Assembly (NCBI GenBank): GCA_963823345.1
Contig: CAWGLE010000004.1
Location: 513,166 to 577,165 of the forward strand
DNA: 64,000 nucleotides
Origin: Candidatus Sulfomarinibacteraceae bacterium
Lineage (GTDB): Bacteria; Acidobacteriota; Thermoanaerobaculia; Thermoanaerobaculales; Sulfomarinibacteraceae
Reading direction: 5' to 3'
Shown one piece after another: positions 11,856 to 48,358 of this stretch. The notes below the pieces were generated by a model. The model made no database searches. It was not told where the DNA came from and saw only the letters and a program-made list of their open reading frames with translations. How positions within the stretch are numbered: the first letter of the stretch is position 1; each line of letters starts with the position of its first letter. The position numbers and the translations under genes were made by a program.

Positions 11856-11948
11856 GGGCGGGGATAAACCCCGCCCCTACGCTGCTCCGGGACATATACC
11901 GTACCCGAAAGCCGTAGGGGAGGGGTTTATCCCCTCCCTTTCGTTTTC
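11856..11948. repeat. REPIN type 2, intergenic copy (GGGCGGGGATAAACCCCGCCCCTAC ... GTAGGGGAGGGGTTTATCCCCTCCC)
   Basis: Two inverted hairpins with inward CTAC/GTAG heads and a 43-nt spacer. It lies between selD and the desulfurase gene. The same family is embedded in paralogues A, B and D. Confidence 0.8.
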
Positions 11949-23898: not shown

Positions 23899-23964
23899 GG
23901 GAGGGGATAAACCCCTCCCCTACGGCTTTCCTTGCGTTCGTAGGGGCGGGGTTTATCCCCGCCC
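23899..23964. repeat. REPIN type 2 embedded in paralogue A coding region
   Basis: GGGAGGGGATAAACCCCTCCCCTAC-ggctttccttgcgttc-GTAGGGGCGGGGTTTATCCCCGCCC. On the minus strand it is translated as ..AGINPAPTNARKAVGEGFIPS... Confidence 0.8.
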
Positions 23965-25797: not shown

Positions 25798-25831
25798 CGT
25801 ATACCCACACTCGCGACATGACTGGATCATG

Positions 25832-25879
25832 TGCAGGCGGGACGCCTGCACCACACACCCGGCAGCCGGGACGGCTGCC
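25832..25879. repeat. Two REP hairpins with 8-bp stem and GGA loop
   Basis: TGCAGGCG-gga-CGCCTGCA (25832-25850; also at 42080-42098) and GGCAGCCG-gga-CGGCTGCC (25861-25879). Confidence 0.75.
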
Positions 25880-25972
25880 CCACAACGGACTATCGGCCGT
25901 CTCGGTCGGGCACGTGCTCCACGGCCCAGGGCGCGGCCGTCGCGACAAAAACTCATCTGAGGTATCCTCGAC

Positions 25973-26412
25973 GTGGAGGCCCCGATCATGAACTCGAACG
26001 TTGGTCCGGCCGAGCGCATCACCGCAGTGCTGTCGGCTCGTCCGGAGATCCTCGAAGCGTACCTCTTCGGGTCCGGGCGCGAGGTGAGGGCCAGGCGCAC
26101 AGCGATATCGACATCGCTGTTTTCATCGATGAAGCGAAGGTCGAACCGGGCCCCTTCGGATACCGAGCAGAGCTGACATCGGCGCTGATGAGCGGCCTCG
26201 GCACCAACGCCGTCGATGTCGTGGTGCTCAACCGCGCGCCGCCGCTTCGTGTACCACCGGGTCCTGCGCGACGGCTGCGTCTGTGTTCACGCGACCTTCG
26301 TGCAACCACGGTTCGCGAGGGCAGGGCCCTCTCACGCCACTGCGATTTCGTGCCGCAGCTGGCGAAGATCGACGCCATACTAGGTGCTCGAGCGCCGTTC
26401 TCGGAGAGGTAG
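25973..26412 (+). pseudogene. mntA: MntA-type minimal nucleotidyltransferase (antitoxin), copy 1, frameshifted
   Basis: ..RITAVLSARPEILEAYLFGS.. (frame 2) then ..GEGQAHSDIDIAVFIDEAKVEPGPFGYRAELTSALMSGLGTNAVDVVVLN.. (frame 1). There is a 1-nt deletion near 26071-26080 relative to copy 2, plus a +1/-1 pair around 26245-26290. Confidence 0.65.
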
Positions 26413-26414
26413 TC

Positions 26415-26845
26415 GTGGGCCCGGGTGAAATCGACGTCCTGATCATACGTCGCCACCTGGCCGCTCTCCGCGAGTCGCTCCAGGTCCTCGCCGCTCGCAA
26501 TGAGGTCTCTCTCGAGGAACTCGACGCCGACACCGAGCTGCTGTGGGTCGTGGAACGCGGTCTCCAGCTCTGCGCACAAAACGCGCTCGACATCGCGACC
26601 CACATCGCGGCAAGCAGGGGCGGGACGTCCCGGACTACGCCAGCGCCATCGACGAGCTCGGGCGCCTCGACGTGCTCGACCATGATTTCGTACGCGAGTT
26701 TCGCAACGTTGCGGGCTTCCGGAACGTGCTGGTGCACGGCTATCTCGATGTGGACCTGGATGTCCTGTACACGCTCCTGCACGACCGTCTCGGAGACTTC
26801 GAGTCCTTTGCGGCCCGAATCGAGACCTACCTCGAAAACCTCTGA
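26415..26845 (+). pseudogene. hepT: HepT-type HEPN (DUF86) toxin, copy 1, frameshifted
   Basis: GTG 26415 lies 2 nt after the mntA stop. The N-terminal half is in frame 0 (..LWVVERGLQLCAQNALDIATHIAA..). The C-terminal half is in frame 2 (..DVPDYASAIDELGRLDVLDHDFVREFRNVAGFRNVLVHGYLDVD..; Rx4H motif). The shift is near 26605-26625. Confidence 0.65.
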
Positions 26846-29432
26846 GGCCCGCCTGTGCCCGCCAGGGTCGCCTGATCTCGGATGAGATCGCCCGAAGAAC
26901 AATCGTCTCCTCACGGCATCACCATGTCGGCACCGTTTCCCACCCGGGAAGGGATCGTGGGTCAGCTTCCATCCGGTGGAGGATTCCTCGTCGCGGACGA
27001 CGCGGAGGTTGGTGAGGGTCTTGAGTTTGGCAATGAGCTCCTCACGCGGCAGGGTGTGGAGCGGGGCCTTCGAGAGGTCGGGCATGGGCCAGAGGCGGAC
27101 TGTTCCATCATTACCCCCGGACGCGATCCATCGACCGAGGGGGTCGATTGCGAATGTCCACACCGTGCTCTCGTGACCGAGCAGAAGATGCGGTTCTTCT
27201 CCGGTCAGGGGACCAACGCGGATCTCGCCATCCCGGTCCCCGGTAACGGCAAGAGTCCCAGCTGGATCGATGCCAACAGCTGATATATTGTTCCCGAATC
27301 GTTCGAGGCTGGTTTTCGTCCCTGAGTCGAGATCGAGAAAGACGGCTTTTCCAGACAGAGGGTCCGACTTTTCATCTTCGATGACGAGCACCCGGCGCCC
27401 ATCGGCGCTCGCAGCAAACAACCCGACGCTCCCTTCGGGCTTATACAAAAGGTCACGTCGCCCACCCCGAATATCCCATTGCCACAGCCCCGACACACTT
27501 GTCGAAAGCAGACGGTCTCCTGTCGTGAATTGAAGGCAATCGGGTCGGGTTGGTTCTCCAACTTCCAGGACGGCCACTTCCTCACCTGACGGAACGTCCC
27601 AAACCCTGATCTTTTGTTCTGCAGGATCGAATCTTCCCCCTGCAGCGGCGGCCAAGCGGCCGTCGGCACTGAAGGCCACCCCCCATGTCTGACCCGTGAA
27701 ACCTTCGAGGTTGATGGAGAACCCGCCATCGGACTGCAGTAGCCGTGTGCCCGCCCCATTGGTGCCGGCCAGGATCTGCTCACCGTCTGGTGATACTGCA
27801 ATACCCGTCGTCCATGTGTTCAGTTCCAACAATATGCGCCCCGGCGGAGGAGGGTCCCCTTCGAGTGGCCACAGCCTGACGGTGCCGTCCATAGAACTCG
27901 AAGCGAGCCAACTGCCGTCGGGTGCGAATGCGAGACCGGGCACTTCTAGATCTTGTTGCCGTATGACGATGGGAGACTGCCTCGACAGCGGCCATATTGC
28001 CAACCCGGCCAGGTCAGCGGTCGCCAACCAGTCGCCTCGGGGGCTGAATGCACACTGTCGAGTTGCATGTTGTCGCCGCGGAGGAGAACCAGCGGTTCGG
28101 CGTCGATCGGCAAATCCGTTGACCACACGCGATACTTCAAATCGGGTCCCCACCGGGCCACCCGTCTGCCGGAGTCGTCCCATCTCCGCCACCCCCAACC
28201 GGTTCCACCAAGATTGAAGCGGCGAAGGAATCGGGGGGAATCTCCTGATACGGCCCAGACCGATGAAACAAAATTGCCGTCTTCTCGAGCAAGCGCTTCG
28301 AGGCGGGACCCGTCAATCGAAAACTCGAGGGAACGAATTCCTAGTGGCCCCTTGAATACAAATGGTGGAAGGACACCGCGTGGATCCCACAGTCGGATCT
28401 CTCCCCTCGACGTCCGCTGTGGCGACAAAACGCCCAAGGGGATCCACGGCAACGCCCACGGCAGTGCGACCGACCCTGCCCAAACGCCGCGCCGGAGAGA
28501 GGGCGTGGTCGCCCACCTCGGCGATGAAAACATCGCCATCAGCAACAACGCCGATCCAGGCCCCATTCTGAGGGTCGAGATCGAAGTGAGTCAGCCATTT
28601 CCCGTCTTGATCCCGTTTGACCACGAACTCCAGCGTGCCGAGGCGCTCAACTGAACCGTCGTGACCCAGGGTATCGACAACGCCGAGGTTGTTTTCCTCG
28701 ACCAGTAGAACGTGGCGATCTCTGTTCGTATCCTCCGCGATGCCTCTCGTGTACGCGGGTTCCTTGTAACGGATGTCTGCCAGCCTCGTCTCCTCTATTA
28801 CTGACCATAGGCCGTGCTCCCAGGTCCCGTCGGCACCGGACCCATAGGTTACGAAGTGCCCGGTGTTGCTGATACGCGATACGGCTCCGGCCGACGCGGA
28901 AGCCTCTGATTCAAGGTATCTGCTGGACCCGTCGGCAGAAATGACGCTCAATCGGGGACTCCCTTCGGGGACACCTCTCCTTTGTTGAACCAGCCACCTG
29001 CCGTCGGGGCTGAATGGGCAGGCCCAGACCTGGTCATCGGAGGCAACAAGCGCTGTAGGTCCTTTCCACAGCGCTTCGAGGGCAAGCAGGCGCGCACTTG
29101 GACCGTCGGCAAGTTCCAGGCTTGCGATCGCGTGGGCGACCGCTGCTGACGGGTACGACTCCAGTTCCAGCTGTCCCAGCGACACGAGGTTTGCCGCTTC
29201 GGCGCGGCGCTCCTGGAGAGCGCTCCGTTGCCACAAGATAGTCGTTGCCGCAGTTACCACTGCGGCGATCACCAGGGCCGCCGCCACTGCGGCGCGGCGT
29301 CTACTTCGTCGGCGGCCTGAAAGGGCGACCATGGCACCGGCGAACGCTTCCTCGAGTTCGGTCAATCCTCCCGGATATCGATCCCGCCACACGGCGAACT
29401 CTCGGTACGCCGAACCGGTCCAAAGCAGATCG

Positions 29433-31559
29433 TCAGACCGATCGTGCTCGTTCCACGTCTTTGCAGCCTGCCGGAGCTGATCGCGGAGCTGGGCCGCGTC
29501 GGCGTCCTGGGTCTGCCAGCGTACGAGGCGCGGCCAGTTGGCGAGCAGCGATTCGTGGATGATTTCGACCTGGCGCACCGGCTCGTGCTCGTCCTCGTGG
29601 ATTTCGTAGGAGGTCAGGAGCCGCGCATCGATCAATTCCGCGCAAGACCTCTTCGGCAGCGCTGCGGGAGGGGATTAACCCCTCCCCTACGGCTTTCCTT
29701 GCGTTCGTAGGGGCGGGGTTTATCCCCGCCCTGCGATGGTCCCCATCGAAGATCGACAGGATCTCGTCCCATTCGCGGACGGCTCGGGTGCCTTCTGTGG
29801 TGACGAGGTTTCGGAAGAGTTCTCTTACAACGGGAATGCGTTCGACGCCGATGCGGGCAATCGTCGCCTCTGCGTGCTGGGCAAGCGCTCCGCCGACCCC
29901 GCCGATGTCCTGGTAAGCCTGGCGGGTGAGGAGTCCGGTTTCGCGATTTCGCATCTCCCAGAGCCGCGCCGCAGCGAAGGCCAGCAACGGGAGTGCTCCT
30001 CGTTCACCTTCCACCTCGACGAGCATCTCGTCCACCAGATCGTCGTCCTCAAAGCGGTAGCCGCACTGGAGGGCGGGTTGTGTCAGGGCGCGCCGGAGGT
30101 TGGCACCGGTCGGCGGATTGAGCATCGTCAGCTCGTTGAAGACCGGTTGAAACTGCTCGTGCGAGCTGCACGATGCGGCGAAATCATCCCTCATGGACAG
30201 CAGCACGTGGGTGTCGGCTTCGAGGGGGAGTCGGGCGAGCAGGGTCGCAAAGTGCTTTTGGCGATCGCCGGAATGGAGGGTGAATAACTCCTCGAATTGG
30301 TCGAGGATTAGAAGGGTCGCGCGATGATTTCCTCGTGCGTTCGCCATCGTCTCGATGATGACGTCCGGGTTTTCGGGATCCGTCAGAAGACGCTCGAGGT
30401 TGTCGTGCTCGTGAGAAAGCACGGAAGTCAGCGCGCCGCGCAGCGAGGCAACAGCTGCGTTTCCGGGAGTGCATCGCAGAATTATCCAGCCGGTTGGAGC
30501 ATGCGCCATCAACCCCGCTCTGATGAACGAGGTTTTTCCTGCGCCAGATGGCCCCATGATTGCGATCATCCGCGCCGGTCCCTCGAGCTTGCGCCACATC
30601 TGCTCGACCTCGGCCTCGCGGCCGAAGAAGTACTCGGCGTCTGATTCGGTGAAGGAGGCGAGACCGGGGTAGGGGTGGAGGTCGTCGGCGCCTTCGACGC
30701 GGAGGGTCACGTCTTCGAGAGCGCGCGTCAGCGTGTGGGCGGAGTTGTAGCGGCCTTCGCGGTCTTTTTTTACGGCCTTCTGGATTACCTGAGCCCACGG
30801 CGTCTCGGGGACCTTTGCGGGTTCGGAGCGCACGCCTTCCCACACGCTCTGGCGGGAGTCGAAGCTCTTGATGCCCTCGGGGCTCACCATCTCGGCCAGC
30901 ACCACGCCTGCCGCGTAGACGTCGGCCCGTGCGTCGAGCGTCTGGCCTGCCGCCTGCTCGGGCGACATGTAGGCCGGGGTGCCGGCGACCGTGCCGCCGC
31001 CCTCGGTCTCCTGCCGGGCGAGGCCGAAGTCCATCACGACCACCCGCCCGGCCCGGGTCAGCATGATGTTCTCGGGTTTGATGTCGCGGTGGATCAGCCC
31101 GGCCTTGTGGATCGCCTCCAGTCCGGCGAGAAACTGCGAGGCGATGTCCTGGGCTTCCTTGAGCTCGAGCGGTCCACGCTCTTGAAGAACGCCGAGAAGG
31201 GTCGCCCCGTCGACGTACTCCATGGACACCAACTCGCGGCCCTCGACCTCGATCAGATCGAAAATGCGGCAGACGTTGGGCGACACCACCTCGCGGGCCG
31301 CTCGCACTTCCTGGCGCAGCAGTTCGAGTCGCCGCTCGGATTTGAAGAACTCCGGTCGCAGCGCCTTCAGCGCCACCTCGACCCGGAGCTTGAGATCGAA
31401 GGCGTGCCACACCTCACCCATCCCACCGCGCCCGAGCATCTCGAGAATCTGGTACCGCTCACCCAGCACCTGGCCGGAGGTGAACCCCTGCATCCCCTCC
31501 GGCATGTCGAGGGTCTCGCCCTCACCCTCGGTGCGGGTGGGGAGGTTTGGGTCAGTCAT
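29433..31559 (-). CDS. Kinase + STAND NTPase ORF of paralogue B (708 aa, intact up to just after the REPIN insert)
   Basis: Full kinase motifs, then ..LHPYPGLASFTESDAEYFFGREAEVEQMWRKLEGPARMIAIMGPSGAGKTSFIRAGL.., ..LLILDQFEELF.. (Walker B-like). Confidence 0.65.
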   Translation of the reverse strand: MTDPNLPTRTEGEGETLDMPEGMQGFTSGQVLGERYQILEMLGRGGMGEVWHAFDLKLRVEVALKALRPEFFKSERRLELLRQEVRAAREVVSPNVCRIFDLIEVEGRELVSMEYVDGATLLGVLQERGPLELKEAQDIASQFLAGLEAIHKAGLIHRDIKPENIMLTRAGRVVVMDFGLARQETEGGGTVAGTPAYMSPEQAAGQTLDARADVYAAGVVLAEMVSPEGIKSFDSRQSVWEGVRSEPAKVPETPWAQVIQKAVKKDREGRYNSAHTLTRALEDVTLRVEGADDLHPYPGLASFTESDAEYFFGREAEVEQMWRKLEGPARMIAIMGPSGAGKTSFIRAGLMAHAPTGWIILRCTPGNAAVASLRGALTSVLSHEHDNLERLLTDPENPDVIIETMANARGNHRATLLILDQFEELFTLHSGDRQKHFATLLARLPLEADTHVLLSMRDDFAASCSSHEQFQPVFNELTMLNPPTGANLRRALTQPALQCGYRFEDDDLVDEMLVEVEGERGALPLLAFAAARLWEMRNRETGLLTRQAYQDIGGVGGALAQHAEATIARIGVERIPVVRELFRNLVTTEGTRAVREWDEILSIFDGDHRRAGINPAPTNARKAVGEGLIPSRSAAEEVLRGIDRCAAPDLLRNPRGRARAGAPGRNHPRIAARQLAAPRTLADPGRRRGPAPRSAPAGCKDVERARSV
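29666..29731. repeat. REPIN type 2 embedded in paralogue B coding region
   Basis: GGGAGGGGATTAACCCCTCCCCTAC-ggctttccttgcgttc-GTAGGGGCGGGGTTTATCCCCGCCC. Confidence 0.8.
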
Positions 31560-31585
31560 GGATGACTCGAGAGTCGATTCCCAGT

Positions 31586-31686
31586 GTAGGCGGGTCCTTC
31601 AGGGCCCGCCACCACCGGCGTCGAGTCATTTCTACCGCATTTGACTCCGGGTGGATCCGTGGGCGCGCCCTGAAGGACGCGCCTAC
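31586..31686. repeat. REPIN type 3 between paralogues B and C
   Basis: GTAGGCGGGTCCttcagGGCCCGCC ... GGGCGCGCCctgaagGACGCGCCTAC (outward GTAG/CTAC heads). Confidence 0.7.
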
Positions 31687-31722
31687 ATTTCGTTGAGTCG
31701 CCTCGGGCGTTCGGGCGGAAAC

Positions 31723-31750
31723 TCCGAAATCCGAAATCCGAAATCCGAAA
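31723..31750. repeat. Tandem 7-mer array (TCCGAAA)4
   Basis: Four perfect units, 7 nt from the stop codon of paralogue C (31758-31760, minus strand). Confidence 0.8.
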
Positions 31751-31757
31751 TCGCGAC

Positions 31758-34700
31758 TCACCATGTCGGCACCGTTTCCCAACCGGGGAAGGGATCGTGG
31801 GTGAGCTTCCAGCCGGTGGAGGATTCCTCGTCGCGGACGACACGGAGGTTGGTGAGGGTTTTGAGCTTGGCGATGAGATCCTCACGCGGCAGGGTGTGGA
31901 GCGGCGGTTTCGAGAGATCGGGCATGGGCCAGAGACGGATCGTCTTGTCCTTGCCTCCTGATGCGACCCACCGGCCAAGAGGATCGAAGGCGAGGGCGGT
32001 CACGCCGTTTTCGTGGCCAAGAAGAAGGTGGGGCTCTTCGCCGGTGATCGGCCCCACTCGAACCACACCGTCCGTGTCACCCGTCGCCACAATCTTGTTT
32101 TTTTGGTCGAGGGCGACGGCATAGACCCTGGTCCCATGGGTCTCGAGAGTCCTCGTCTCGCCAGTTTCAAAGTCCAAGAAAACAGCACGCTTTGGCGCGC
32201 TTGCTTCGAGCACATAGCCCTCAATGACGATCGCTTGTTTCCCGTCCGAGCTGGCATCAAAGAGAAAAATATTTCCCTCGTAGAGCAGTTCGCTTTCACC
32301 GGTCACGAGATCCCATTTCCGCAGCCCGAACTCGCTCGAGGAAAGGAGGTGACCGTCATTCGTGAATTGAAGACAGAACACTCGACGGCCCTCGGGATAC
32401 AGCACCGCCACTTCTTCCCCTGAAGTGCGGTCCCAAACGAGGATTCGGATCTCAGGGGTCTTTACATCCAACACGCCGGCGCAGAGCCGGCCGTCGGGAC
32501 TGATCGACGCGCCCCAAAAACTCACCGGCCCGATGTCCGGTACGGTCTGGAACTCCTCGCCCGAAAGAGAGAACAACCGAGCGCCCGACCACGCGGTACC
32601 AGCGAGGAGCTGCTCCCCGTCGGGCGTCCTTGCAAGGTCGTACATCTGTTTGCCCGGGTCCTTCAAAAGGATGCGGCCTGGAGGGAGGACATCACCCTCC
32701 AACGGCCAAAACCTCACTGTGTCATCCATCGAGGACGAAACCAGCCAGCGACCCTCCGGACCGAACAGAAGGTCCATGACCTCCTTTTCATGACGCCGGA
32801 TCACCGCCGGGTACGGCCGAGCCAGCGGCCACAGCGCGGCGCCGGCCTTGTCGGCACTCGCCAGCCAGTTTCCGTTCGGGTGGAAAGACAGGCCCCACAA
32901 GACGTCAACGTCGCCGCGGAGCAGGAACACCGGCTCGGCATCGGCAGGCGCAGCCATCGGCCAGAGCCGAATTTTGAGGTCGGAACCACTCCTGGCTATT
33001 TGCCAGCCTACACGGTTGAGGCCCCACCATCCGATACCGTCGTCACCGACTGGGAATGGGCGGAGAAATCGTGGCGGATTGGTATCAAGCAACCAGATCC
33101 ACGATGTGACCTCTCCTTCCTCAAACACCGAGGCTTCCAGTAGTGATCCATCGGCGGTGATGTCGAGAATCGCTCCCGGAGGGGCACTGAGAAGGATCGG
33201 CGGCGAATCTCCCGCGTTGTCCCAGAGGCGAATTCGTCCATCCTCGGCTATGGTGGCGAAAAAACGCCCCAACGGATCGAAGAGAACTTTCCTGACGGGC
33301 TCCACGTGGCGGCCCAGCCGGCGTGGTTCGGAGAGGCTGTGTTCGCCGATATCGATGACCAGCACGTCTTCATCCACCACCGCGCCAAGCCAGCGGCCGG
33401 TTCGGCGCTCGAGATCGGTACGGCGGATCCAATCCCTGGAGGTTTTAAAACCGAGGTCCGGGGTGCCGAGACGTTTGCGAGCGCCGCCAAAGCCGAGGAT
33501 ATCGATGCTTCCTATTTTGCCTTCGAGTACCAGGTACACCATTCGCTGCTGGGTGGCGTTGACGGCCTGTCCCAATAGGCGGGCTGGGCCGTCATAACTG
33601 GCCTCACTGAGCATTCGTCCGTCTGCAACAGACCAGAGTGCGAGGAGTGGGAGCACGGATTTGTCAAAGAACCCGAATGAACTGAAGACACCGGTCTCCA
33701 GCCCCACTCGAATATTGATCCGCCTTGACTCATGCTGGTGCTGGAGCAACTCACTGGTTCCGTCAGCCTTGATTAACCGCAGGTTGCCGGTCCCGTCTCC
33801 TGACTGCACCAGGGCGCGCCCGTCGGGGGTGAACTCGGCTTGCCAAGAACTCTCGTCATTGATGACCAGTGCGGTCGGCCCCCCCCACAACGCCGCCTGG
33901 GCCAAATAGCGGGCGCTCGGACTGTCGGCGAGTTCGAGGCTGGTGATGGCGTATGCGACGGCGGCGGACGGATAGGAATCGAGTTCCTGTTGCCCGAGGG
34001 CAAGGAGTTCATTCGCTTCAGCACGGCGGGTCTCTCTTTCGCTCTTCGCCCACATCCCGCCGAGAATCGAGGCAACTCCGGCGAGCACAACCAACGCAGC
34101 TGCCATGACGAGCCGCCGCCGCCGTTTTCGACGGGTGGCAAAGGAGGTCATTGCCGTGGCGTAGGCCTCCTCGGTCGACGTGAGACCACCCGGGTATCGT
34201 TCCCTCCACAGTTCGAACTCGCGGTAAGCAGTTCCGGTCCAGAGTCGATCATCGTGCCGGCCGTGCTCGTCCCAGGAGCGAGCTGCCTGCCGAAGCTCGT
34301 CGCGGAGCTGGGCTCCTTCCTGGTCCTGCGTTTGCCAGCGCACGAGGCGCGGCCAGTTGGCGAGGAGGGACTCGTGGATGATCTCCACGCGGCGGGTGGG
34401 TTCGTGCTCGTCTTCGTGGATTTCATAGGAGGTCAGCAGGCGGGCGTCGATGAGTTCGCGAAGGACCTCTTCGGGCGATTTGCTGTGGGAATCGCTGAAT
34501 ATTGAAAGAAGCTCACCCCATTCGCGCACCGCGCGCGTGCCCTCTGCGGTCACCAGGTTCCGGAACAGTTCGCGGACGATCGGAATGCGCTCCGAACCGA
34601 TGTGGTCGATAGTTGCTTCGGCGTGCTGGGCGAGCGCGCCGCCGACGCCGCCGATCTCCTGGTACGCTTGACGGGTGAGCAGCCCAGTCTCGCGGTCGCG

Positions 34701-34919
34701 CTTCTCCCACAGACGTGCGGCAGCGAACGCCAGTAGCGGCAACGCGCCGCGTTCGCCTTCGACCTCGGCCAGCATCTCCTCGATCAGCTCATCGTCTTCG
34801 AAGCGGTATCCGCACTTTGTCGCGGGTTGCACGCTGCGCGGCGCAGATCGCCCCCGGTCGGCGGGTCGAGCACCGTGAGTTCTGGAAGATCGGATCGCAG
34901 CGAATCGTGGGCATTGCAT
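31758..34919 (-). CDS. Intact 1053-aa ORF of paralogue C: distal NTPase/helical region - TM - WD40 - conserved tail
   Basis: Homology begins at ..KCGYRFEDDELIEEMLAEVEGERGALPLLAFAAARLWEKRD.. and runs uninterrupted to ..THDPFPGWETVPTW*. The first ~35 codons are out-of-frame junk, so the true start and expression are unclear. Confidence 0.45.
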   Translation of the reverse strand: MQCPRFAAIRSSRTHGARPADRGRSAPRSVQPATKCGYRFEDDELIEEMLAEVEGERGALPLLAFAAARLWEKRDRETGLLTRQAYQEIGGVGGALAQHAEATIDHIGSERIPIVRELFRNLVTAEGTRAVREWGELLSIFSDSHSKSPEEVLRELIDARLLTSYEIHEDEHEPTRRVEIIHESLLANWPRLVRWQTQDQEGAQLRDELRQAARSWDEHGRHDDRLWTGTAYREFELWRERYPGGLTSTEEAYATAMTSFATRRKRRRRLVMAAALVVLAGVASILGGMWAKSERETRRAEANELLALGQQELDSYPSAAVAYAITSLELADSPSARYLAQAALWGGPTALVINDESSWQAEFTPDGRALVQSGDGTGNLRLIKADGTSELLQHQHESRRINIRVGLETGVFSSFGFFDKSVLPLLALWSVADGRMLSEASYDGPARLLGQAVNATQQRMVYLVLEGKIGSIDILGFGGARKRLGTPDLGFKTSRDWIRRTDLERRTGRWLGAVVDEDVLVIDIGEHSLSEPRRLGRHVEPVRKVLFDPLGRFFATIAEDGRIRLWDNAGDSPPILLSAPPGAILDITADGSLLEASVFEEGEVTSWIWLLDTNPPRFLRPFPVGDDGIGWWGLNRVGWQIARSGSDLKIRLWPMAAPADAEPVFLLRGDVDVLWGLSFHPNGNWLASADKAGAALWPLARPYPAVIRRHEKEVMDLLFGPEGRWLVSSSMDDTVRFWPLEGDVLPPGRILLKDPGKQMYDLARTPDGEQLLAGTAWSGARLFSLSGEEFQTVPDIGPVSFWGASISPDGRLCAGVLDVKTPEIRILVWDRTSGEEVAVLYPEGRRVFCLQFTNDGHLLSSSEFGLRKWDLVTGESELLYEGNIFLFDASSDGKQAIVIEGYVLEASAPKRAVFLDFETGETRTLETHGTRVYAVALDQKNKIVATGDTDGVVRVGPITGEEPHLLLGHENGVTALAFDPLGRWVASGGKDKTIRLWPMPDLSKPPLHTLPREDLIAKLKTLTNLRVVRDEESSTGWKLTHDPFPGWETVPTW

Positions 34920-36304
34920 GCGGCTACGAAGTCATCGCGCATTGAAAGCAGCACGTGGATGTCGCTCTCGAGAACGGATCGCCGCAGCAGTTCTGCGAAC
35001 CTCCGCTGTTCTTCGATACCGTTCTGAGTGAACAGCTCTTCGAACTGATCGACGACTACGAGAGCATGTGTGTCCGTTCGCGCCCAGCTGGCCGAGTACC
35101 TGAACGGCGACGTCGGCATCGCCGAAACGAGGAAGCAGCTCGACCGCGTCCGGATCTCCAGCCGTTTCGCCGGCCACCACCCCGGCGAGCGAGGAGGTGG
35201 CTGCGTTTCCGGGAGTCGATCGGATGATCCCCCAGTCCGGCGGAGCGTGGGCCACGCAGCCCGGCCGCGAGAAACGAGGATTTTCCTGCCCCCGAGGGCC
35301 CGATAATTGCGAGCATTCGCGGCGGCCCCTCGAGCTTGCGCCACATCTGCTCGACCTCGGCCTCGCGGCCGAAGAAGTACTCGGCGTCTGCCTCCGTGAA
35401 TGATGCGAGCCCGGGATAAGGGTGGAGGTCGTCGGCGCCTTCGACGCGGAGGGTCACGTCTTCGAGGGCGCGCGTCGAGGGTGTGGGCGGAGTTGAAGCG
35501 ACCCTCGCGGTCTTCCTGACGGCCTGTTGGATGACCTGCGCCCACGGGGTGTCCGGGATCTTTGCGGCTCGGAGCGCACGCCTTCCCAGACGCTCTGCCG
35601 GGAGTCGAAGCTCTTGATTCCGTCGGGGCTCACCATCTTCGGCCAGCACCACGCCGCTGCGTAGACGTCTGCCCGCGCGTCGAGCGTCTGTCCCGCCCCT
35701 GTTCGGCGACATGTAGGCCGGAGTGCCGGACACCGGCCTCCGCCCTCGGTTTCCTGACGGGCGAGGCCGAAGTCGATCACGACGACCCGACCGGCCCGGG
35801 TGAGCATGATGTTTTCCGGCTTGATGTCGCGGTGGATCAGGCCGGCCTTGTGGATGGCTTCGAGCCCGGCGAGGAACTGCGAAGCGATGTCCTGGGCTTC
35901 TTTGAGTTCGAGCGGCGCGCGCTCCTGGAGCACTCAAGCAACGTCGCGCCGTCGACATACTCCATCGACACCAGCTCACGGCCTTCGACCTCGATCAGAT
36001 CGAAGATGCCGGCAGACGTTGGGAGAGACCACCTCACGAGCGGCGCGGACTTCCTGCCGCAACAGTTCCAGCCGCCTCTCGGACTTGAAGAACTCGGGCC
36101 GCAATGCCTTCAGCGCCACCTCGACCCGCAGCTTCAGGTCGAAGGCGTGCCACACCTCGCCCATCCCGCCACGTCCGAGCATCTCGAGGATCTGATAGCG
36201 GTCACCCAGCACCTGTCCGCGGTGCGAAGCCCTTCATCCCCTCCGGCATGTCGAGGGTCTCGCCCTCACGCTCGGTGCGGGTGGTGGAGATCGTGGTCAG
36301 TCAT
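31758..36304 (-). pseudogene. Paralogue C of kinase - STAND NTPase - TM - WD40 protein (N-terminal kinase/NTPase part decayed)
   Basis: ATG 36304 (MTDHDL..). An extra C gives a stop after 12 codons. Kinase and NTPase pieces lie in ORFs 35976-36212, 35454-35933, 35056-35979 and 34784-35545, with several shifts and a few replacements (E->D, G->A, M->I). It lacks the REPIN insert (..LLSIFSDSHSKSPEEVL..). Confidence 0.65.
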
Positions 36305-36482
36305 TGGTTATCCGAGTCGGAAGTGACCGGTTTGGTGGACGGGTCACTCCGAGGCCCGCCACCGCCCACCCGGCGGGCCGGGACGGCTGCCCCACAACGG
36401 ACACATTGGCCACTTTGTCGGGCACGCGCTCCGCGGCCCCGGCGCTGTCGTCGCGACAGGAACTATCTGAGGTATCCTCGAC

Positions 36483-36923
36483 ATGGAGGCCCCGTTCATG
36501 GATCCGAAAGATCTGCTGGCTGGACGCATCACCGCGGTGCTGTCGGCTCGTCCGGAGATTCTCGAGGCGTATCTCTTCGGATCCCACGCTCGGGGTGAGG
36601 GCCAGGCGCACAGCGATATCGACATCGCTGTGTTCATCGATGAAGCACGAGGTCGGACCGGGCCCCTTCGGATACCGAGCGGAACTGACCTCCGCGCTGA
36701 TGAGCGGTCTCGGCACCAACGCCGTCGATGTCGTGGTGCTCAATACCGCGCCGCCTCTCCTGTACCACCGGGTTCTGCGCGACGGCTCCCGTCTGTACTC
36801 TCGCGACCTTCGCGCGACGACGGTTCGCGAGGGCCGGGCCCTCTCGCGCCACTGCGATTCGTGCCGCAGCTCGCGAAGATCGACGCCATACTAGGTGCTC
36901 GAGCGCCGTTCTCGGAGAGGTAG
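36483..36923 (+). pseudogene. mntA: MntA-type nucleotidyltransferase, copy 2, middle third out of frame
   Basis: ..YLFGSHARGEGQAHSDIDIAVFIDEA (frame 0), then a +1 shift near 36645-36655. ..PGPFGYRAELTSALMSGLGTNAVDVVVLNTAPPLLYHRVLRDGSRLYSRDL..ALSRHCD is in frame 1, then a -1 shift near 36858 returns to ..FVPQLAKIDAILGARAPFSER*. Confidence 0.65.
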
Positions 36924-36925
36924 CC

Positions 36926-37357
36926 GTGGGCCCGGGTGAGATCGACGCCCTGATCATTCGGCGGCACCTGGCCGCTCTCCGCGAGTCGCTCCAGGTACTC
37001 GCCGCTCGCAGCGACGTCTCTCTCGAGGAACTCAACGCCGACACCGAACTGCTGTGGGTTGTTGAGCGCGGTCTCCAACTCTGCGCACAAAACGCGCTCG
37101 ACATCGCGACGCACATTGCAGCCGGCCGGGGGCGCGATGTCCGGACTACGCCAGCGCCATCGACGAGCTCGGACGCCTCGGCGTGCTCGACCGATGAGTT
37201 CGTACACGAGTTTCGCAACGTCGCCGGTTTCCGGAACGTGCTGGTGCACGGCTATCTCGATGTGGACCTGGATGTCCTGTACACGCTCCTGCACGACCGT
37301 CTCGGAGACTTCGAGTCCTTTGCGGCCCGAATCGAGACCCACCTCGAAAACCTCTGA
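36926..37357 (+). CDS. hepT: HepT-type HEPN (DUF86) toxin, copy 2; open frame but with a 19-codon recoded patch
   Basis: GTG 36926. ..EFRNVAGFRNVLVHGYLDVDLDVLYTLL.. (Rx4H). Between ~37140 and ~37197 a -1/+1 pair turns the ancestral VPDYASAIDELGRLGVLD into VRTTPAPSTSSDASACSTD. Confidence 0.6.
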   Translation: MGPGEIDALIIRRHLAALRESLQVLAARSDVSLEELNADTELLWVVERGLQLCAQNALDIATHIAAGRGRDVRTTPAPSTSSDASACSTDEFVHEFRNVAGFRNVLVHGYLDVDLDVLYTLLHDRLGDFESFAARIETHLENL

Positions 37358-37430
37358 GCCTCGGTTGTGCCCGCCAGGGTCGCCTGATCTCGGATGAGAT
37401 CGCCCGAAGCGTAAGCGTCTCCTCATGACA

Positions 37431-40400
37431 TCACCACGTCGGCACCGTTTCCCACCCCGGGAAGGGATCATGGGTGAGCTTCCACCCAGTGGTGGACTCT
37501 TCGTCGCGGACGACGCGGAGGTTGGTGAGGGTTTTGAGCTTGGCGATGAGATCCTCACGCGGCAGGGTGTGGAGCGGCGGCTTCGAGAGGTCGGGCATAG
37601 GCCAGAGGCGGATCTCGGTTCCCGACGACGAGGCGATCCAACGATCCAGAGGGTCGACAGATACGGCGTAGATCTCGTCCGGATTTCCAAGCAGAAGATG
37701 AGGTTCCTCGCCAGTTATGGGTCCGACGCGGATCACGCCGTTCGAGTCACCCGTTACAGCGACCGTGCCCGATGGATCTATCGCGACCGCTGTCACGCGG
37801 TCCCCATGGGACTTGAGCGTATTTGTCAATCCGGTCTCGAGGTCGAGCGACACGGCTTTACCTAAAAGGGCCAAGGACGCCCTCTCGTTCCCAACTTCGG
37901 ACAGAAGCGCGTGGGTACTGTCCACGCCAACCGCAAACTTCTCCACAGGTTTTTCGAACAGGGCTTCCGTGACACCGGTTTCAAAATCCCAGCCGAACAA
38001 ACCCGATGAGTGCGAATACAGAACGAGCCCCCCCTCCGTGAATTGGAGGAAAGGAGTGGCATTGGTTTTGGCCAATTCGAGCGCTGCTATCTCTTCGGAC
38101 GAGGAAAGGTCCCACACTCGTACAACGGTTTCCTCATAATTCCCTTTCAAACCGGTGGCTGCAGCGAATCGGCCGTCGGGGCTGAACGCCGCTCCCCATA
38201 CAATTTTGGCGACGCCTGGAAGATCAACAGGTTTCTCATTGCTGAGTGAGAGCAGTTTTGTGCCGGTGGCGTGGGTCCCGAGAAGGAGGTGTTCCCCGTC
38301 AGGGGAAGCAGCGAGACCGTACGGATAAGCCCCCGCCTCGAACACAGTCCGGGCCGCCGGCACGTTATCGCCCTCCAAATCCCACACGCGAACGGCGCCG
38401 GTTGAGTCGACACCGCTCGTCGCGAGCCACCTGCCCTCGGGTCCGAATACCAAATTCATGGCTCGCTCCTCGTACCGATTGATCACCGCTGGGTAGGGTC
38501 AGGTCACTGGCCAGAGAGTCAGGCCGTTTGTAAACGAGGTGGCCAACCACCCGCCATTCGGGTGAACTCTCACGCGTCTCGGGGTGCTGGCGTCACCTCG
38601 TTGCAAGATTGTGGGTTCGGCGTCAGCCGGCGCCCGCAACCACCACAGCCGGGTTTTCGGGTCTGGATTGAGGATGCTGACGATCTGACCTTCAACTGGA
38701 TTGAGCGTCCAGCCCGCGGTTCCGCTGCTCTTCCCAAGATCGATGTGGCGAAGCAAGGTCGGTTCGCGGTCCCGAAGAGACCAGATCCACGATTCGACCA
38801 TGTCGTTTTTCCGTGTGATAACCTCGAACAACGATCCGTCGCCACTGATACTGAGTCGAATGTCGCCGCGTGGCCCCCCTTTGATCTCCCGTGGCGGCGA
38901 CTCCCCATCCAGGTCTCGCAGACGAATCCGCCCGTCTTCGGAGAGTGAAACGACGAATCGACCCTGGGGGTCGCATTGGAGGCGCACGACTGGAGTATCG
39001 AGAAAATCGAGATGTCGCGGCTCTGAGAGTTCGTGGTCTCCGACCTCGATCACGTAGACATTTTGACCGGACCCAACGGCAAACCATTTTCCTTTCGGGG
39101 CGCTTTGGCAAAGAACTGTCGAACGCGAGTCAAATGGGAGAGCGCCGAGGCGTTCGGAGCTGCCGTCGAATCCTAAGGCATCGATGAAGAAACGGTCGTC
39201 CTCTATCGACATCAGCAATACGCGGGCTCGCCCCAGGTCGAAATAGATTCTCCGAGTATTTTCTGGAATCCCGGATCGGCCGGTGGAAAGCAGTTTTTTT
39301 TCAGGAGCCGACCAGAGCGCCCATAGTTCGGCGTTGCCCCAGGGACTTGTCGCGAAAACTCCTGATTCCGTATCCATCGTCAGACCAACCCAGTCATCGT
39401 GCACGTCCTCTAACAGTTCATCGGTTCCTTCAGCACCGATAACATGCAGTTGGTAAGGGGCCGCATCCGTTGCCTGCACGAGCCACTGACCGTCAGGGGT
39501 GAACTCGATTTCCCACGACGGAATTTCGTTGACAACAAACGCTGTCGGGCCTTTCCAGAGCGCCTTGAGTGCGAGGAGCCGAGCCTCTGAACTGTCCGCC
39601 AGTTCGAGACTGGCCGTCGCGTATGCCACTGCGGCTGACGGATACGACTCGAGTTCTACCTGCGCCTGGGAAAGAAGGGTGGCGGCCTCGGCGCGGAGAG
39701 TTTCGCGGACGCTTCGCTGCCAGAATGTGCCGACGACCGCGAGGCCGGCGAGGAGGACAGCGAACCCTGCGCTCACCGCTATTCGACGCCTGCGCCGACG
39801 TCGCCCGGCGAGGGAGGTCATGGCGTTCCCGAAATCTCTTTCGATCTCGGTCAGGCCACCGGGATAGCTTTCGCGCCACACGGCGAACTCTCGGTAAGCC
39901 GAACCGGTCCAAAGCAGATCGTCAGATCGGTCGTGCTCGCTCCACGTCTTCGCTGCCTGCCGGAGTTGATCGCGGAGCTGGGCCGCATCGGCGTCCTGGG
40001 TCTGCCAGCGCACCAGCCGCGGCCAGTTGGCGAGCAGAGATTCGTGGATGATTTCTACTCTACGGGTTGGTTCGTGTTCGTCTTCGTGGATTTCGTATGA
40101 GGTCAGGAGTCGGGCGTCGATGAGTTCGCGAAGGACCTCTTCTGCGGCAGTGCGGGAGGGGATGAACCCCTCCCCTGCGGCTTTCCCTGTCTTCGTAGGG
40201 GCGGGGTTTATCCCCGCCCTGGGGTAGCTCCCACCGAAAATCGAAAGGAGTTCATTCCATTCACGGACGGCGCGGGTGCCTTCGGCGGTGATGAGGTTTC
40301 GGAAGAGTTCTCTGACGATGGGGATCCTCTCGACACCGGTGCGATCGATTGTTGCCTCGGCGTGCTGCGCCAATGCCCCGCCGACGCCGCCGATGTCGTG

Positions 40401-42045
40401 GTACGCCTTTCGGGTGAGAAGCCCGTTCTCCTTGTCGCGTCGTTCCCAAAGCCTCGCCGCCGCAAAGGCAAGCAGCGGGAGTGCTCCGCGTTCGCCTTCG
40501 ACCTCGGCGAGCATCTCGTCGACCAGATCGTCGTCCTCGAAGCGGTAACCGCACTGCAGAGCAGGTTGGGTCAGGGCGCGCCGAAGCGGTGCACCCTCCG
40601 GTGGGCCGAGCATCGTCATGTCGGCGAGCGCCGGACGCAGTGGCTTGTTCTGGTGGCAGCGGAAGAGATAGTCATCGCGCATGCTCAGCAGCACGACGAT
40701 GTCGGCCTCGAGAACGAGCGCGTTCAAGAGTTCTGCGATCGTGCTCTGGATCTCTGGCGGGTTGAGGGTGAACAGCTCCTCGAACTGATCGATGATCAAT
40801 AGTGCGTGGTCATGCTTGCGACGCCAACGAGCGACAAGGTCCACCGCGACGTCCAGCTCGTGAAAGCGTAGCAAGAGTTTTACGCCATCAGAATCTCCCG
40901 CCGTCTCGGTTGCGAAGGCTCCGGCAAGGGCGTTGACGGGTGCGTTGCCGGGGGTGCATCGAACAATTCCCCAGCCTGGCGGAGCGTGCGGCGCCAGCCC
41001 CGCCCCCAAGAAGGACGTTTTTCCGGCTCCCGAAGGGCCCGCGATTGCGAGCATTCGCGGCGGCCCTTCGAGCTTGCGCCACATCTGCTCGACCTCGGCC
41101 TCGCGGCCGAAGAAGTACTCGGCGTCTGATTCGGTGAAGGAGGCGAGGCCGGGGTAGGGGTGGAGGTCGTCGGCGCCTTCGACTCTGAGGGTGACGTCTT
41201 CGAGCGCTCTGGTCAGGGTGTGGGCGGAGTTGTAGCGGCCCTCGCGGTCTCTTTTTACCGCCTGTTTAATGACTGGCGCCCATGGCGTGTCGGGGACCTT
41301 TGCGGGCTCCGAGCGCACGCCTTCCCAGACGCTCTGCCGGGAGTCAAAACTCTTGATGCCTTCGGGACTCACCATCTCGGCCAACACCACGCCCGCTGCG
41401 TAAACGTCGGCCCGCGCATCGAGGGTCTGGCCTGCAGCCTGCTCCGGCGACATGTAGGCGGGTGTGCCGGCGACAGTCCCGCCGCCCTCGGTCTCCTGGC
41501 GGGCGAGGCCGAAGTCCATCACCACCACCCGCCCGGCACGGGTGAGCATGATGTTTTCGGGTTTGATGTCGCGGTGGATGAGGCCAGCCTTGTGGATCGC
41601 TTCGAGGCCGGCGAGGAACTGCGAGGCGATGTCCTGCGCTTCCTTGAGCTCGAGCGGACCGCGCTCCTGGAGCACGCCGAGAAGCGTCGCGCCGTCGACG
41701 TACTCCATCGACACCAGCTCGCGGCCCTCGACTTCGATCAGATCGAAGATCCGGCAGACGTTGGGCGAGACCACCTCACGAGCGGCGCGGACTTCCTGCC
41801 GCAACAGTTCCAACCGCCTCTCGGACTTGAAGAACTCGGGCCGCAATGCCTTCAGCGCCACCTCGACCCGCAGCTTCGAGGTCGAAGGCGTGCCACACCT
41901 CGCCCATCCCGCCGCGGCCGAGCATCTCCAGCACCTGATAGCGCTCACCGAGCACCTGACCGGGGGCGAAGCCCTTCATCCCCTCCGGCATGTCGAGGGT
42001 TTTGCCCTCGTCCTCGGTGCCTGTGGGGAGGTCGCGGTCAGTCAT
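37431..42045 (-). pseudogene. Paralogue D of kinase - STAND NTPase - TM - WD40 protein (least damaged: one +1 frameshift, one in-frame TGA)
   Basis: ATG 42045 (MTDRDLPTGTEDEGKTLDMPEG..). An extra C at 41877 splits the kinase between the Gly loop and VALK. A 1149-aa ORF (38499-41948) follows, then TGA 38499-38501 where B and C have Arg. The same frame continues for 356 codons to ..GWETVPTW* (37431). Confidence 0.6.
40154..40219. repeat. REPIN type 2 embedded in paralogue D coding region
   Basis: GGGAGGGGATGAACCCCTCCCCTGC-ggctttccctgtcttc-GTAGGGGCGGGGTTTATCCCCGCCC, translated ..AGINPAPTKTGKAAGEGFIPS.. within the intact 1149-aa ORF. Confidence 0.8.
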
Positions 42046-42079
42046 CGCGTGCCCTCAGATCCTGACGTATCAGTACGTG

Positions 42080-42098
42080 TGCAGGCGGGACGCCTGCA
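42080..42098. repeat. REP hairpin TGCAGGCG-gga-CGCCTGCA
   Basis: Identical to 25832-25850. It lies between the FHA regulator gene and the start of paralogue D. Confidence 0.7.
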
Positions 42099-42196
42099 CC
42101 ACAAGCGGGCCTCCGTTCTTGTGGTACGCGCGTCTGGTGGGTCGGGGAGGAGTGTCGGCGACGAGGTGTCGCTCGGTGGGGCCCGGTCCCCGCTGT

Positions 42197-42928
42197 TCAT
42201 GAGACCGTGTGCTCGGTCTGGGTGGGTTCGCCGTCGATGAGGTAGCGGAAACGAGCGACGCTGCGGCCGATCCAGATCTCGTCGCCGTCGGTCAGCACAG
42301 CTGGTTGGTGGAGGCGTTGCCCGTTGAGGAAGGTGCCGTTCTTGCTTCCCAGGTCTTCGACGGTCGCGGTGGTGCCGTTGACAAAGACTCTGGCGTGGCA
42401 GCGGGAGACCTCGGTGCGGTCGATGCACACGGTGGCGTCAGAGGTGCGCCCGATGACGTTGGAGCCCTGGGAGAGGGGATACTCGGTTCCGTTCCCCTGG
42501 AGCCGGAGCGGGAGGGTGACTTCGCGGACCGGACGGATCGCAGCCTCCACCGGCGTCACTGCGGCCACCAGCCGGTAGCCCTTGCGCGGGATGTTCTCGA
42601 TGTAGAGGGGGTTTCGGGCATCGTCGCCGAGGGCGGCGCGGATCTCGGCGATGACCTGGGTGAGGGCGTGGTCGGACACGAACTCGGTGCGCCACACGGC
42701 GTCGATGAGGTGGCGCTTGGCGGCCAGCTTGCCGGCCTCCATCGCGAGACATACCAGCACGTCCATCGCCCGCGGGCGGAGCTGGAGGACAGTGCCGTCG
42801 CGCGAGATCCGGTCGAGCGTCGGCTCCACCAACCAGTCGCCGAGATGGAACGACCGTCTGGGGGCGCCCGCCATGTCTCCTGTCGGTTGCATTTTGAGAG
42901 AAGTATAGGGCTTAAGGAGTGAGACCAC
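42197..42928 (-). CDS. Transcriptional regulator: CadC/OmpR-type winged helix + C-terminal FHA domain
   Basis: ..FHLGDWLVEPTLDRISRDGTVLQLRPRAMDVLVCL..IENIPRKGYRLVA (Trans_reg_C-like). Then ..NVIGRTSDATVCIDRTEVSRCHARVFVNGTTATVEDLGSKNGTFLNGQRL..GDEIWIGRSVARF (FHA). Start at GTG 42928 or ATG 42892. Confidence 0.8.
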   Translation of the reverse strand: MVSLLKPYTSLKMQPTGDMAGAPRRSFHLGDWLVEPTLDRISRDGTVLQLRPRAMDVLVCLAMEAGKLAAKRHLIDAVWRTEFVSDHALTQVIAEIRAALGDDARNPLYIENIPRKGYRLVAAVTPVEAAIRPVREVTLPLRLQGNGTEYPLSQGSNVIGRTSDATVCIDRTEVSRCHARVFVNGTTATVEDLGSKNGTFLNGQRLHQPAVLTDGDEIWIGRSVARFRYLIDGEPTQTEHTVS

Positions 42929-45329: not shown

Positions 45330-46012
45330 ATGGACGAGCACCGTAACGACGACGAGGTTGAGCGAGAGCCAGAAGCCCCGGCCGCGGAGAAGCCCGCACC
45401 GCAGAAACCGGTGGCGGCCGATGTCTTTGCGGTCCCGCCTGCGACCGGCAAGGAGGCGTGGCGCGGCGGGTCGGGTTGCGGGCCCCGGGCCAAGATCTAC
45501 GTCATGATCGTCGGGGTGGCGGGTCTGGTCGCGATCCTTCTCGTCGGTCTGTCGGTCCTGCGCCGCGGGGTGTGGGTGACGATGGACCAGGGCCGCCAGG
45601 CGGTGGTGCAGAACCTGCCGTTCGACCTCCCGCCGGCCGAGCGCCAGCGCATCATCAAGAACCTCGATCGGTTCCGGGCCCTCCTCGAAGCCTCCGACGA
45701 TCCCTACCCGGTCATGGGTGAGTTCATGACGCGGGTGCGGGCGGTCCTGAGAGACGGCCGCCTCACGGTCGACGAGGTCAGCGGGCTCAGCGTCTATATC
45801 GAGAGGGTGATCGAGGAGTCGGGGATACCACCGCTGCAGCTCGGATTTCGGATTTCGGATTTCGGATTTCGGATTGCCACCCTGCCACCCCCTTCCATGC
45901 AGCTGCTCGAGGATGACTGTGCAGCCGATTTCCTCCACCACCAGCGGAGCCTTCTGAGCCGGGGGAGGGTGGACGGGAAATCCGAAATCCGAAATCCGAA
46001 ATCCGAAATTTC

Positions 46013-48025: not shown

Positions 48026-48358
48026 ATTTCGGATTTCGGATTTCGGATTTCGGATTTTCCACCCATCCACCCCACACGTGTCCTCCCGTGCTATCCAGAG
48101 CCCCAATGGGGCAGGGTCAGCGTTCGATGACGACGCGGATTCCTGCAGTGCGCAGCGATGCGATTGCGGTCCACTCGCCAGCAGCGATACTGAAGGTGGG
48201 CCAAGGCCCACCCTACTTCGGACCAACAGATTGAGCGGACTGGTAGGGTGGGCTTCAGCCCACCTTCAGAGTCTCCTCGGGCCGGGTTTGGATGACATTC
48301 AGCTGGAGGAGGGCGGCAGGGTTTCCGAAATCCGAAATTCGAAATCCGAAATTCGAAA
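48024..48358. repeat. Second inverted pair of 7-mer arrays enclosing ~265 bp that contains a REPIN
   Basis: (GGATTTC)5 at 48024-48058 overlaps the uvrB stop. (TCCGAAA/TTCGAAA)5 at 48324-48358 ends 8 nt from the antiporter stop. Confidence 0.8.
48195..48264. repeat. REPIN type 1, copy 3 (heads inward)
   Basis: GGTGGGCCaaGGCCCACCCTAC -26 nt- GTAGGGTGGGCttcagCCCACC. Confidence 0.75.

Follow-up and report, generated by a model that had tools for sequence, protein, structure and literature searches.

A GTAG-type REP doublet read in frame within a predicted surface loop of kinase-nSTAND1-WD40 paralogues in a Sulfomarinibacteraceae genome

Repetitive extragenic palindromes (REPs) of the GTAG type have already been reported inside genes (Di Nocera, De Gregorio & Rocco 2013, BMC Genomics 14:522; PMC3733652). 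More than half of these intragenic GTAG REPs are dimers or groups, they encode 20-30 residues, and they are proposed to lie in flexible linkers or loops. As far as that paper's account of the Rickettsia palindromic elements (RPEs) goes, the intragenic RPE-4 and RPE-6 of R. conorii belong to the CGTC class. Here we examined a 64,000-nt stretch of a Candidatus Sulfomarinibacteraceae genome (contig CAWGLE010000004.1; the window), in which an earlier sequence-only reading had noted a 66-bp double hairpin within three paralogous genes, A, B and D. That reading took the Rickettsia RPEs as the precedent for in-frame insertion; they are not the only one, as in-frame GTAG REP dimers are also documented (PMC3733652). 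We concluded that the element is a heads-inward GTAG REP doublet, REPIN-like (REP doublet forming a hairpin) or a 'TT dimer', of a widely distributed family associated with REP-associated tyrosine transposases (RAYTs). The likely explanation of its position is that a genuine REP doublet sits in an insertion-tolerant surface loop and is translated there into a neutral coil, duplication and gene conversion having spread it among the paralogues.

All positions are window coordinates, and the host genes lie on the minus strand. We observed that the repeat unit is 25 nt long, GTAGGGG[C/A]GGGGTT[T/A/C]ATCCCC[G/T]CCC, with a GTAG head (a GCAG variant in D), an 8-bp G/C stem and a 5-nt loop. A pattern search allowing up to 3 mismatches found 8 units in the window, against 0.00 expected from dinucleotide-preserving shuffles. 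All 8 were arranged as 4 inverted pairs, three genic and one intergenic:

40154-40219, minus strand: REP doublet in paralogue D, 66 nt = 22 codons (AGINPAPTKTGKAAGEGFIPS); on the coding strand, C:G-stem arm at 40219-40195, 16-nt spacer, A:T-stem arm with the GCAG head at 40178-40154
23899-23964, minus strand: REP doublet in paralogue A, 66 nt, same frame
29666-29731, minus strand: REP doublet in paralogue B, 66 nt
11856-11938, plus strand: intergenic REP doublet of the same focal family, 33-nt spacer

The three genic copies were found where the sequence-only reading had placed them, with the A/T/G loop variants and the CTGC head in D that it described. It was also right that an intergenic copy begins at 11856; the 43-nt spacer and the end at 11948 that it gave were not (33 nt and 11938).

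The unit has the form of a GTAG-type REP (a 20-40 bp palindrome with a conserved GTAG/GYAG at one end), and all four pairs are inverted doublets that fold into a long hairpin, as in a REPIN. The small hairpins are each perfect (8/8 pairs), and the long hairpin has two mismatches. As single-stranded DNA the doublets folded at -25 to -33 kcal/mol (z = -4.8 to -6.9 against shuffles), with the minimum-free-energy fold of the long hairpin reaching -30 to -33 kcal/mol (z = -5 to -7). The spacing between the arms is not constant, being 16 nt in the genic and 33 nt in the intergenic doublets. Each pair, genic or intergenic, joins one C:G arm to one A:T arm (the same stem position). The intergenic doublet does not differ from the genic ones in its arms, and both have a gaaagcc extension ahead of GTAG on the A:T-stem arm. 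This doublet lies between two co-directional genes, an aminotransferase-V gene, whose stop is at 12045, and a selD-like gene, which starts at 11827. Miniature inverted-repeat transposable elements combine terminal inverted repeats with a target-site duplication, and no duplication was seen at the junctions of the genic insert (..CGCA/GGG…CCC/GC.., slashes marking the junctions). In an Rfam scan of the whole window, nothing passed the gathering thresholds.

We also observed two further GTAG-headed palindromic repeats in the window, all intergenic. The second repeat, GTAGGGTGGGC-N5-GCCCACC, has 6 units in 3 doublets (1481-1577, 10331-10427 and 48194-48265) against 0.07 expected, and the third is one inverted pair, GTAGGCGGGTCCTTCAGGGCCCGCC with GTAGGCGCGTCCTTCAGGGCGCGCC, at 31585-31687. 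Since these two are present besides the focal family, the genome bears several GTAG-type repeats.

When we searched a collection of species-representative genomes, the exact 25-mer was found in at least 120 loci among the matches listed. These belonged to Thermoanaerobaculia/Sulfomarinibacteraceae, Desulfobacterota, Rheinheimera, Pasteurellaceae, Planctomycetota, Nitrospirota, Chloroflexota and others. Sharing of an exact 25-mer among so many phyla is far beyond chance for 25 nt. The units elsewhere are mostly inverted pairs with variable spacers (~10-60 nt). Extragenic and genic pairs stand at 1 and 3 in the window, beside the at least 120 loci of related Sulfomarinibacteraceae and other genomes. 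In Rheinheimera, 164-aa genes stand amid arrays of the identical REP. Their products carry an HUH motif (NHFHAIL) and a Tyr motif (YYDHVIR) and match PF01797 (30.2 bits), and relatives are named 'REP element-mobilizing transposase RayT' by their sources. Rheinheimera sp. YQF-1 (L011 5106-7737; L numbers denote the loci fetched for comparison) has three near-identical RAYT genes within 8 kb, with REP arrays spaced 81 nt. A tblastn search with the Rheinheimera RAYT against the window and all fetched loci gave matches in Rheinheimera only. A RAYT flanked by REPs, as expected of a REPIN/RAYT system, is therefore seen for the identical 25-mer in Rheinheimera and not in the window. At a Zixibacteria RAYT locus (L128), no focal REP copy was found within 3 kb. 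The RAYT gene that the sequence-only reading had proposed to look for was thus found in Rheinheimera and not in the window or the fetched Sulfomarinibacteraceae loci. Its REPIN-like reading nevertheless holds, on the GTAG head, the 8-bp G/C stem, the mostly inverted pairs, the intergenic copies and the RAYT flanks in Rheinheimera.

Two other in-frame occurrences were seen among these loci. A focal REP doublet with heads outward and a 12-nt spacer lies in frame at 3092-3153 of L103 (a Sulfomarinibacteraceae metagenome-assembled genome, MAG), in the N-lobe of a different Ser/Thr kinase (Pkinase plus PD40 propeller; ..LYGLENLEIDEKA[VGEGFIPSRGDERAGINPAPT]TVHMIVMELVEG..). Single REP units lie in frame at 2016-2040 and 2530-2554 of L039, where a large Planctomycetota protein has an acidic linker of low complexity (..EPEPASYSE[VGAGFIPAR]SSEAD..).

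The fourth paralogue of the window, C, provides the empty site:

34473-34496, minus strand: empty site in paralogue C, a 24-nt linker AGCGATTCCCACAGCAAATCGCCC (SDSHSKSP)

The linker of C has 8 residues against 31 in the insert-bearing paralogues, so that it is 23 codons shorter, as had been claimed. Of the 83 database homologues whose linker could be resolved, most have 6-9 residues there, and the closest have SDSxSESP, like C. A short linker is the majority state across these 83 and 80 further metagenomic homologues (~160 in all), and the insert is therefore derived. The sequence-only reading had left the choice between insertion into the linker and loss from C; insertion is the better reading, the short linker being the majority state. 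C and most homologues lack the insert, which gives the presence/absence at homologous sites expected of a mobile REPIN/RAYT element, and REPs are found at the homologous site singly and as doublets, direct or inverted.

We also considered that the insert is an ancestral protein segment lost from C, that the intergenic copy is a gene fragment, or that the inserts are assembly artefacts. The first conflicts with the majority state of the linker, and no homologue has the 23-aa segment without the REP DNA signature. The second conflicts with the flanks of the intergenic copy, which shares with the genic copies the element and the gaaagcc extension and no gene-derived flank. For an artefact it can be said that several related contigs come from MFD MAG assemblies, which we take to be long-read and so error-prone at palindromes and homopolymers, and that L123a, an orthologous copy in a syntenic relative, has damaged REP arms. 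However, contigs with names of the short-read assembly type (L122 k141_, L125, JGI Ga…) have the same inserts. We therefore reject these explanations as highly improbable.

The insert is translated as R-AGINPAPT-[NARK/KTGK]-A[V/A]GEGFIPS-R, in frame in A, B and D, as the sequence-only reading had it. Two of the three frames of each REP arm are open, and because of this, read-through of the insert is not improbable. We modelled a 291-residue region with AlphaFold2 (AF2) from a 53-sequence alignment (mean predicted local distance difference test score, pLDDT, 89; predicted template modelling score, pTM, 0.83). In the model, the insert (residues 143-169) is coil with pLDDT 48-65. It lies between two confidently modelled helices, at 135-142 (..ELLSIF) and at 170-182 (EEVLRELIDARLL), the second of which is followed by a beta-hairpin. 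The model thus places the insert site in a predicted disordered surface loop between two helices of a winged-helix-like nSTAND1 module, in keeping with the earlier proposal that the insert is tolerated as a peptide. A Foldseek search of the modelled region against the PDB gave only weak, non-significant matches (E >= 0.1), to winged-helix proteins and Orc1/NB-ARC; these would fit a winged-helix module without being significant.

The host genes encode a Ser/Thr kinase, an nSTAND1 NTPase (PF20703), a transmembrane stretch and WD40 repeats. Paralogue D matched PF20703 with 308.8 bits (cut-off 27.1; E = 1.1e-91) over profile positions 1-378 of 379, and the REP insert falls inside the matched region. 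The four paralogues, as open reading frames (ORFs), are:

38499-41948, minus strand: long ORF of paralogue D (Pkinase, nSTAND1, transmembrane stretch and WD40)
31758-34919, minus strand: paralogue C (C-terminal half of nSTAND1 and WD40)
28313-31559, minus strand: paralogue B, two overlapping ORFs (29433-31559 and 28313-29635)
22493-25800, minus strand: paralogue A, several frameshifts

None of the four is intact, each having frameshifts or a stop, and the earlier description of the ORFs of B and D as intact does not hold. The true N-terminus of D is frameshifted upstream (~42060), with the frameshift in the kinase N-lobe. D also has an in-frame stop at 38499-38501, where C has Arg, and its WD40 part resumes in 37431-38486. 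The upstream kinase and P-loop part of C (to ~36310) is frameshifted. B has a 1-nt frameshift (cgcGgaatt) ~30 nt downstream of the insert, which is the distance the sequence-only reading had reported. These lesions are either real or long-read assembly errors, and some may be assembly errors. The paralogues are mosaics: the kinase parts are mostly 80-97% identical among all copies and the P-loop parts 46-81%. The high identity of the kinase module across paralogues suggests concerted evolution. With the P-loop and WD40 parts taken together, the four paralogues (22400-42100) are 20-80% identical.

We further observed REPs in the same loop of related genomes. The syntenic relative L123, L121 (Sulfomarinibacteraceae; spacers of 18 and 25 nt) and L124 each have them in two paralogues. 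L083 has one single REP and one direct doublet, L122 has variant stems, and L125 and L126 have single units. The copies of L121, L123, L124, L083, L122 and L125 have a common reading frame. The junctions (A followed by GGG at the 5' end, CCC followed by G[CT] at the 3' end) are common to most copies, the exceptions being the single units in L126 and in L125/L083. L123 is 89-99% identical to the window with a different gene order, the D copy being absent from the part fetched, and in its copy L123b, 5' sequence like that of A is joined to a spacer and 3' flank like those of D.

Several observations weigh against a neutral coil spread by duplication and conversion. REP arms are 86-100% identical between most copies (~70-84% against the variant L122 arms); in the same copies, identity at third codon positions in the flanks is only 35-81%. 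None of the 14 arms tested has lost a stem pair (8/8 pairs in 14/14), the differences being compensatory. This conservation of the arms exceeds what is expected of a neutral peptide-coding insert. The insert-bearing copies are polyphyletic, falling in several clades of a neighbour-joining tree, which is not trusted for counting insertion events because the paralogues are mosaics. All four host genes of the window are disrupted, and it is only the intact homologues elsewhere that establish tolerance in a working protein. Finally, no RAYT was found by tblastn in the 64-kb window or in the fetched Sulfomarinibacteraceae loci; a RAYT may still lie elsewhere in the genome.

The intact stems beside flanking synonymous sites near saturation could be read as a sign that the stem-loop itself is functional in the gene or mRNA, REPs and other palindromes being retained because they supply it; it might, for example, cause translation to pause at a domain boundary, take part in mRNA processing or be a site of recombination between paralogues. 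The fall in identity between paralogue B and its orthologue L123a at the REP doublet (from ~100% to 82-93%) would fit this, as one anecdotal case. Decaying arms in L187, L083a and the second unit of L083b do not fit it. Moreover, the genic arms equal the family consensus, so that recent insertion or conversion explains their conservation equally well. As a recombination breakpoint at the element, the B-L123a pair was the only suggestive case; other pairs had no clear break, and we do not retain the idea.

We then compared the loop in the 80 metagenomic homologues (L129-L208; linker at ~1424 in most loci). The linker had 5-9 aa in 51 loci, 12 aa in 3 and at least 20 aa in 26. The region across the linker was in frame in 80/80, from which we take the frame to be under selection and the host family to be functional elsewhere. 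About a third of these homologues have an insert in the loop, all in frame. The long linkers comprised:

heads-inward REP doublets like those of the window, with several stem and loop variants
heads-outward doublets of another REP variant (unit GTAGGGGAGGGGCTTGCCCCCTCCC) at a different position, in the xDRxAA subfamily
single REP units
an unrelated palindrome with a 20-bp stem (L171, L208)
an unrelated palindrome with a 14-bp stem (L195)
an unrelated element CGGCCGGC..GCCGGCCG (L174, L179, L183)
an unrelated 'LSSRAKRP..ESRDP' repeat, whose core also occurs elsewhere (L057, L083)
an unrelated 'SALPSVAS..HSERSERS' element, seemingly nested within a REP doublet

The heads-outward doublets represent at least a second independent event, as they lie at a different position and in the xDRxAA subfamily. 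In total, REPs occupy this loop in two or more arrangements that differ in position, and four or more unrelated palindromes or repeats occur in it as well. Non-REP palindromic or repeat elements of the loop are also listed, in frame, for L140/L160/L163 and L133/L136/L153, with a larger element seemingly nested between REP-doublet remnants in the latter three.

Perfect hairpins with a stem of at least 8 bp numbered 38 in the linkers and 74 in the remaining ~196 kb, and no REP was found elsewhere in the ~200 kb of the homologue loci. The empty linker (SDSxSESP) itself is a palindrome, (A)GCGATTCGC-N3-GCGAATCGC(C), with a perfect 9-10-bp stem in ~17 loci; the loci noted for this hairpin include L135, L146, L149, L150, L157, L167, L170, L172, L186, L196 and L127. 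The linker of C is a degenerate form with a 6-bp stem. Compensated variants occur (GCC..GGC, GGC..GCC, CGC..GCG), and linker pair 5-25 is GC in 10 and CG in 8 sequences. Overall, 64.8% of cells were paired, compared with 56.6% in shuffles (0/500 reached the observed value) and 22-33% with the partner slid, for a hairpin derived from the same sequences used in the count. Identical-codon use among same-residue pairs was 0.80 in the linker and 0.46-0.49 in the flanks, with all three Ser codons invariant. In L127 the palindrome is retained while the peptide reads AIRNRRIA, and the REP doublet is located between the loop and the 3' arm of the linker hairpin.

These observations raise the possibility that the hairpin of the empty linker attracts mobile palindromes specific for single-stranded DNA or hairpins (REP/RAYT and others), so that targeting, and not tolerance alone, sets the location. 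The stem, the pairing excess, the synonymous constraint, the palindrome that outlasts the peptide in L127, the variety of elements in one loop and the concentration of hairpins there would all accord with this. Against it, the 6-aa-linker subfamily (xDRxAA) has REP dimers without the hairpin, and the pairing test used the sequences from which the hairpin was derived. Also, selection alone could suffice if this is the sole insert-tolerant loop in a very large paralogous family, and we know of no target-site rule for RAYT/REPIN insertion. We consider such a hotspot possible, though less likely than not to be what sets the location; the loop may instead have been used repeatedly as the only one tolerating inserts. 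The broader idea that the linker between helix 2 and helix 3 is a coding-embedded hairpin at the nucleotide level, recurrently capturing or replaced by REP families, REPIN-like doublets and unrelated palindromes, is one we put forward with similar reserve. The synonymous constraint on the short linker and the unrelated palindromes at the same place would suit a selected hairpin equally. Many homologue linkers, however, are non-palindromic with stems of only 3-5 bp. We consider selection on the hairpin unlikely, and somewhat less likely than the hotspot.

Other features near the linker were also noted. GAGGAG after the linker is nearly invariant; an internal start site there was considered and is unsupported, since no conserved start codon follows. 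The AIRNRRIA linker of P0002 was considered as an excision footprint and rejected, as it is the short linker palindrome read in another register and not a REP remnant. A second in-frame palindrome, GCGCAGCTSCGCGAYSAGCTGCGCC, encoding AQLRDQLRQ with an 8-10-bp stem, lies ~+186 nt downstream of the linker and is conserved in L138, L147, L148, L188, L189, L190 and L200.

Returning to insertion into a tolerant loop, the explanation we prefer, the events may have run as follows. One REP copy, presumably mobilised by a RAYT encoded elsewhere in the genome, would have entered the linker between helix 2 and helix 3 of the winged-helix-like module of nSTAND1 in a kinase-STAND-WD40 gene, landing in a small hairpin already present there, between its loop and its 3' arm (..CGCA^[66 nt]^GC..). 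As it is 66 nt long and two of three frames are open, it would be translated as a 22-residue Gly/Pro-rich surface coil, a peptide that is probably neutral. Duplication of the paralogues and gene conversion would then have carried the insert into A, B and D and into L123 and L121, the syntenic relatives, with C retaining the ancestral 8-residue linker.

The finding in the window adds one more host family to the proteins with REP-encoded loops, and points to a REP insert able to spread through a paralogous family. REP-derived peptides (..AGINPAPT.., ..VGEGFIPSR..) in large proteins should be annotated and modelled as repeat-encoded loops. One loop with many palindromic elements and a synonymously constrained empty hairpin could inform target choice by REPs and REPINs, and the same pattern could test selection on hairpins inside coding regions. 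If the linker does recurrently capture palindromes, its empty and filled forms would make up a natural set of target sites on which the integration mechanism of REPs/REPINs, still unknown, could be studied. In that case the linker might also be a point selected for structure or recombination, where the conserved kinase-NTPase module meets the variable WD40 sensor module.

As for the surroundings, the paralogue block has a GC content at third codon positions of 0.68-0.78, below the 0.85-0.92 of neighbouring genes. Toxin-antitoxin and defence-type genes (PIN/MazE, AbiEii, HepT/NTase, AAA_14-DUF4143) occur amid the paralogue clusters (L121, L123, L127; window 19866-21227 and 42197-42928), and an FHA plus Trans_reg_C regulator adjoins them. 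The neighbourhood has the look of a defence island. Tandem repeats of a heptamer, (CCGAAAT/ATTTCGG)n, occur at 31722-31752 and 45841-46009, the latter consisting of two inverted arrays ~100 nt apart (34 nt, 97% complementary).

When compared with known systems, the locus would share with REPs that serve as targets of insertion sequences (Tobes & Pareja 2006, ref. 12 in PMC3733652) a hairpin palindrome as landing site. As far as they are presented there, these may be analogous to the putative hotspot and to the nesting in L133, L136 and L153, with the difference that here the putative target is in a coding region and the incomers are REPs or small palindromes, not full insertion sequences. With the RPEs (Ogata et al. 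2000, as given in PMC3733652), it shares palindromic repeats in frame in ORFs and a tolerated extra peptide. In that account RPE-1 is longer, the host clade is another one, and there is no sequence relation to the focal element. The REPIN/RAYT systems (Bertels & Rainey 2011; Nunvar 2010, PMC2817692; Ton-Hoang/Corneloup, PMC8266576) have in common with it the inverted REP doublet forming one long hairpin and the GTAG head, and the identical unit flanks the Y1 (RAYT) genes of Rheinheimera. Here, by contrast, the spacer is 16-33 nt (10-60 nt elsewhere), the arms differ by a compensated stem pair, 3/4 of the window doublets are genic, and no cognate RAYT was found in the 64-kb window. The closest likeness is to the intragenic REPs of PMC3733652: both are GTAG-tagged short palindromes, in a heads-inward ('TT') dimer, inserted in frame and adding 20-30 residues. 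That paper lays stress on DNA replication and repair genes as hosts, which here are kinase-nSTAND1-WD40 genes, and the REP sequence family may differ. Also particular to the present case are one loop occupied across many paralogues and homologues, by other element types as well, and an empty site that is a conserved hairpin. Since intragenic GTAG-REP dimers have been described in that work, the in-frame REP doublet is of an already known kind, in another host.

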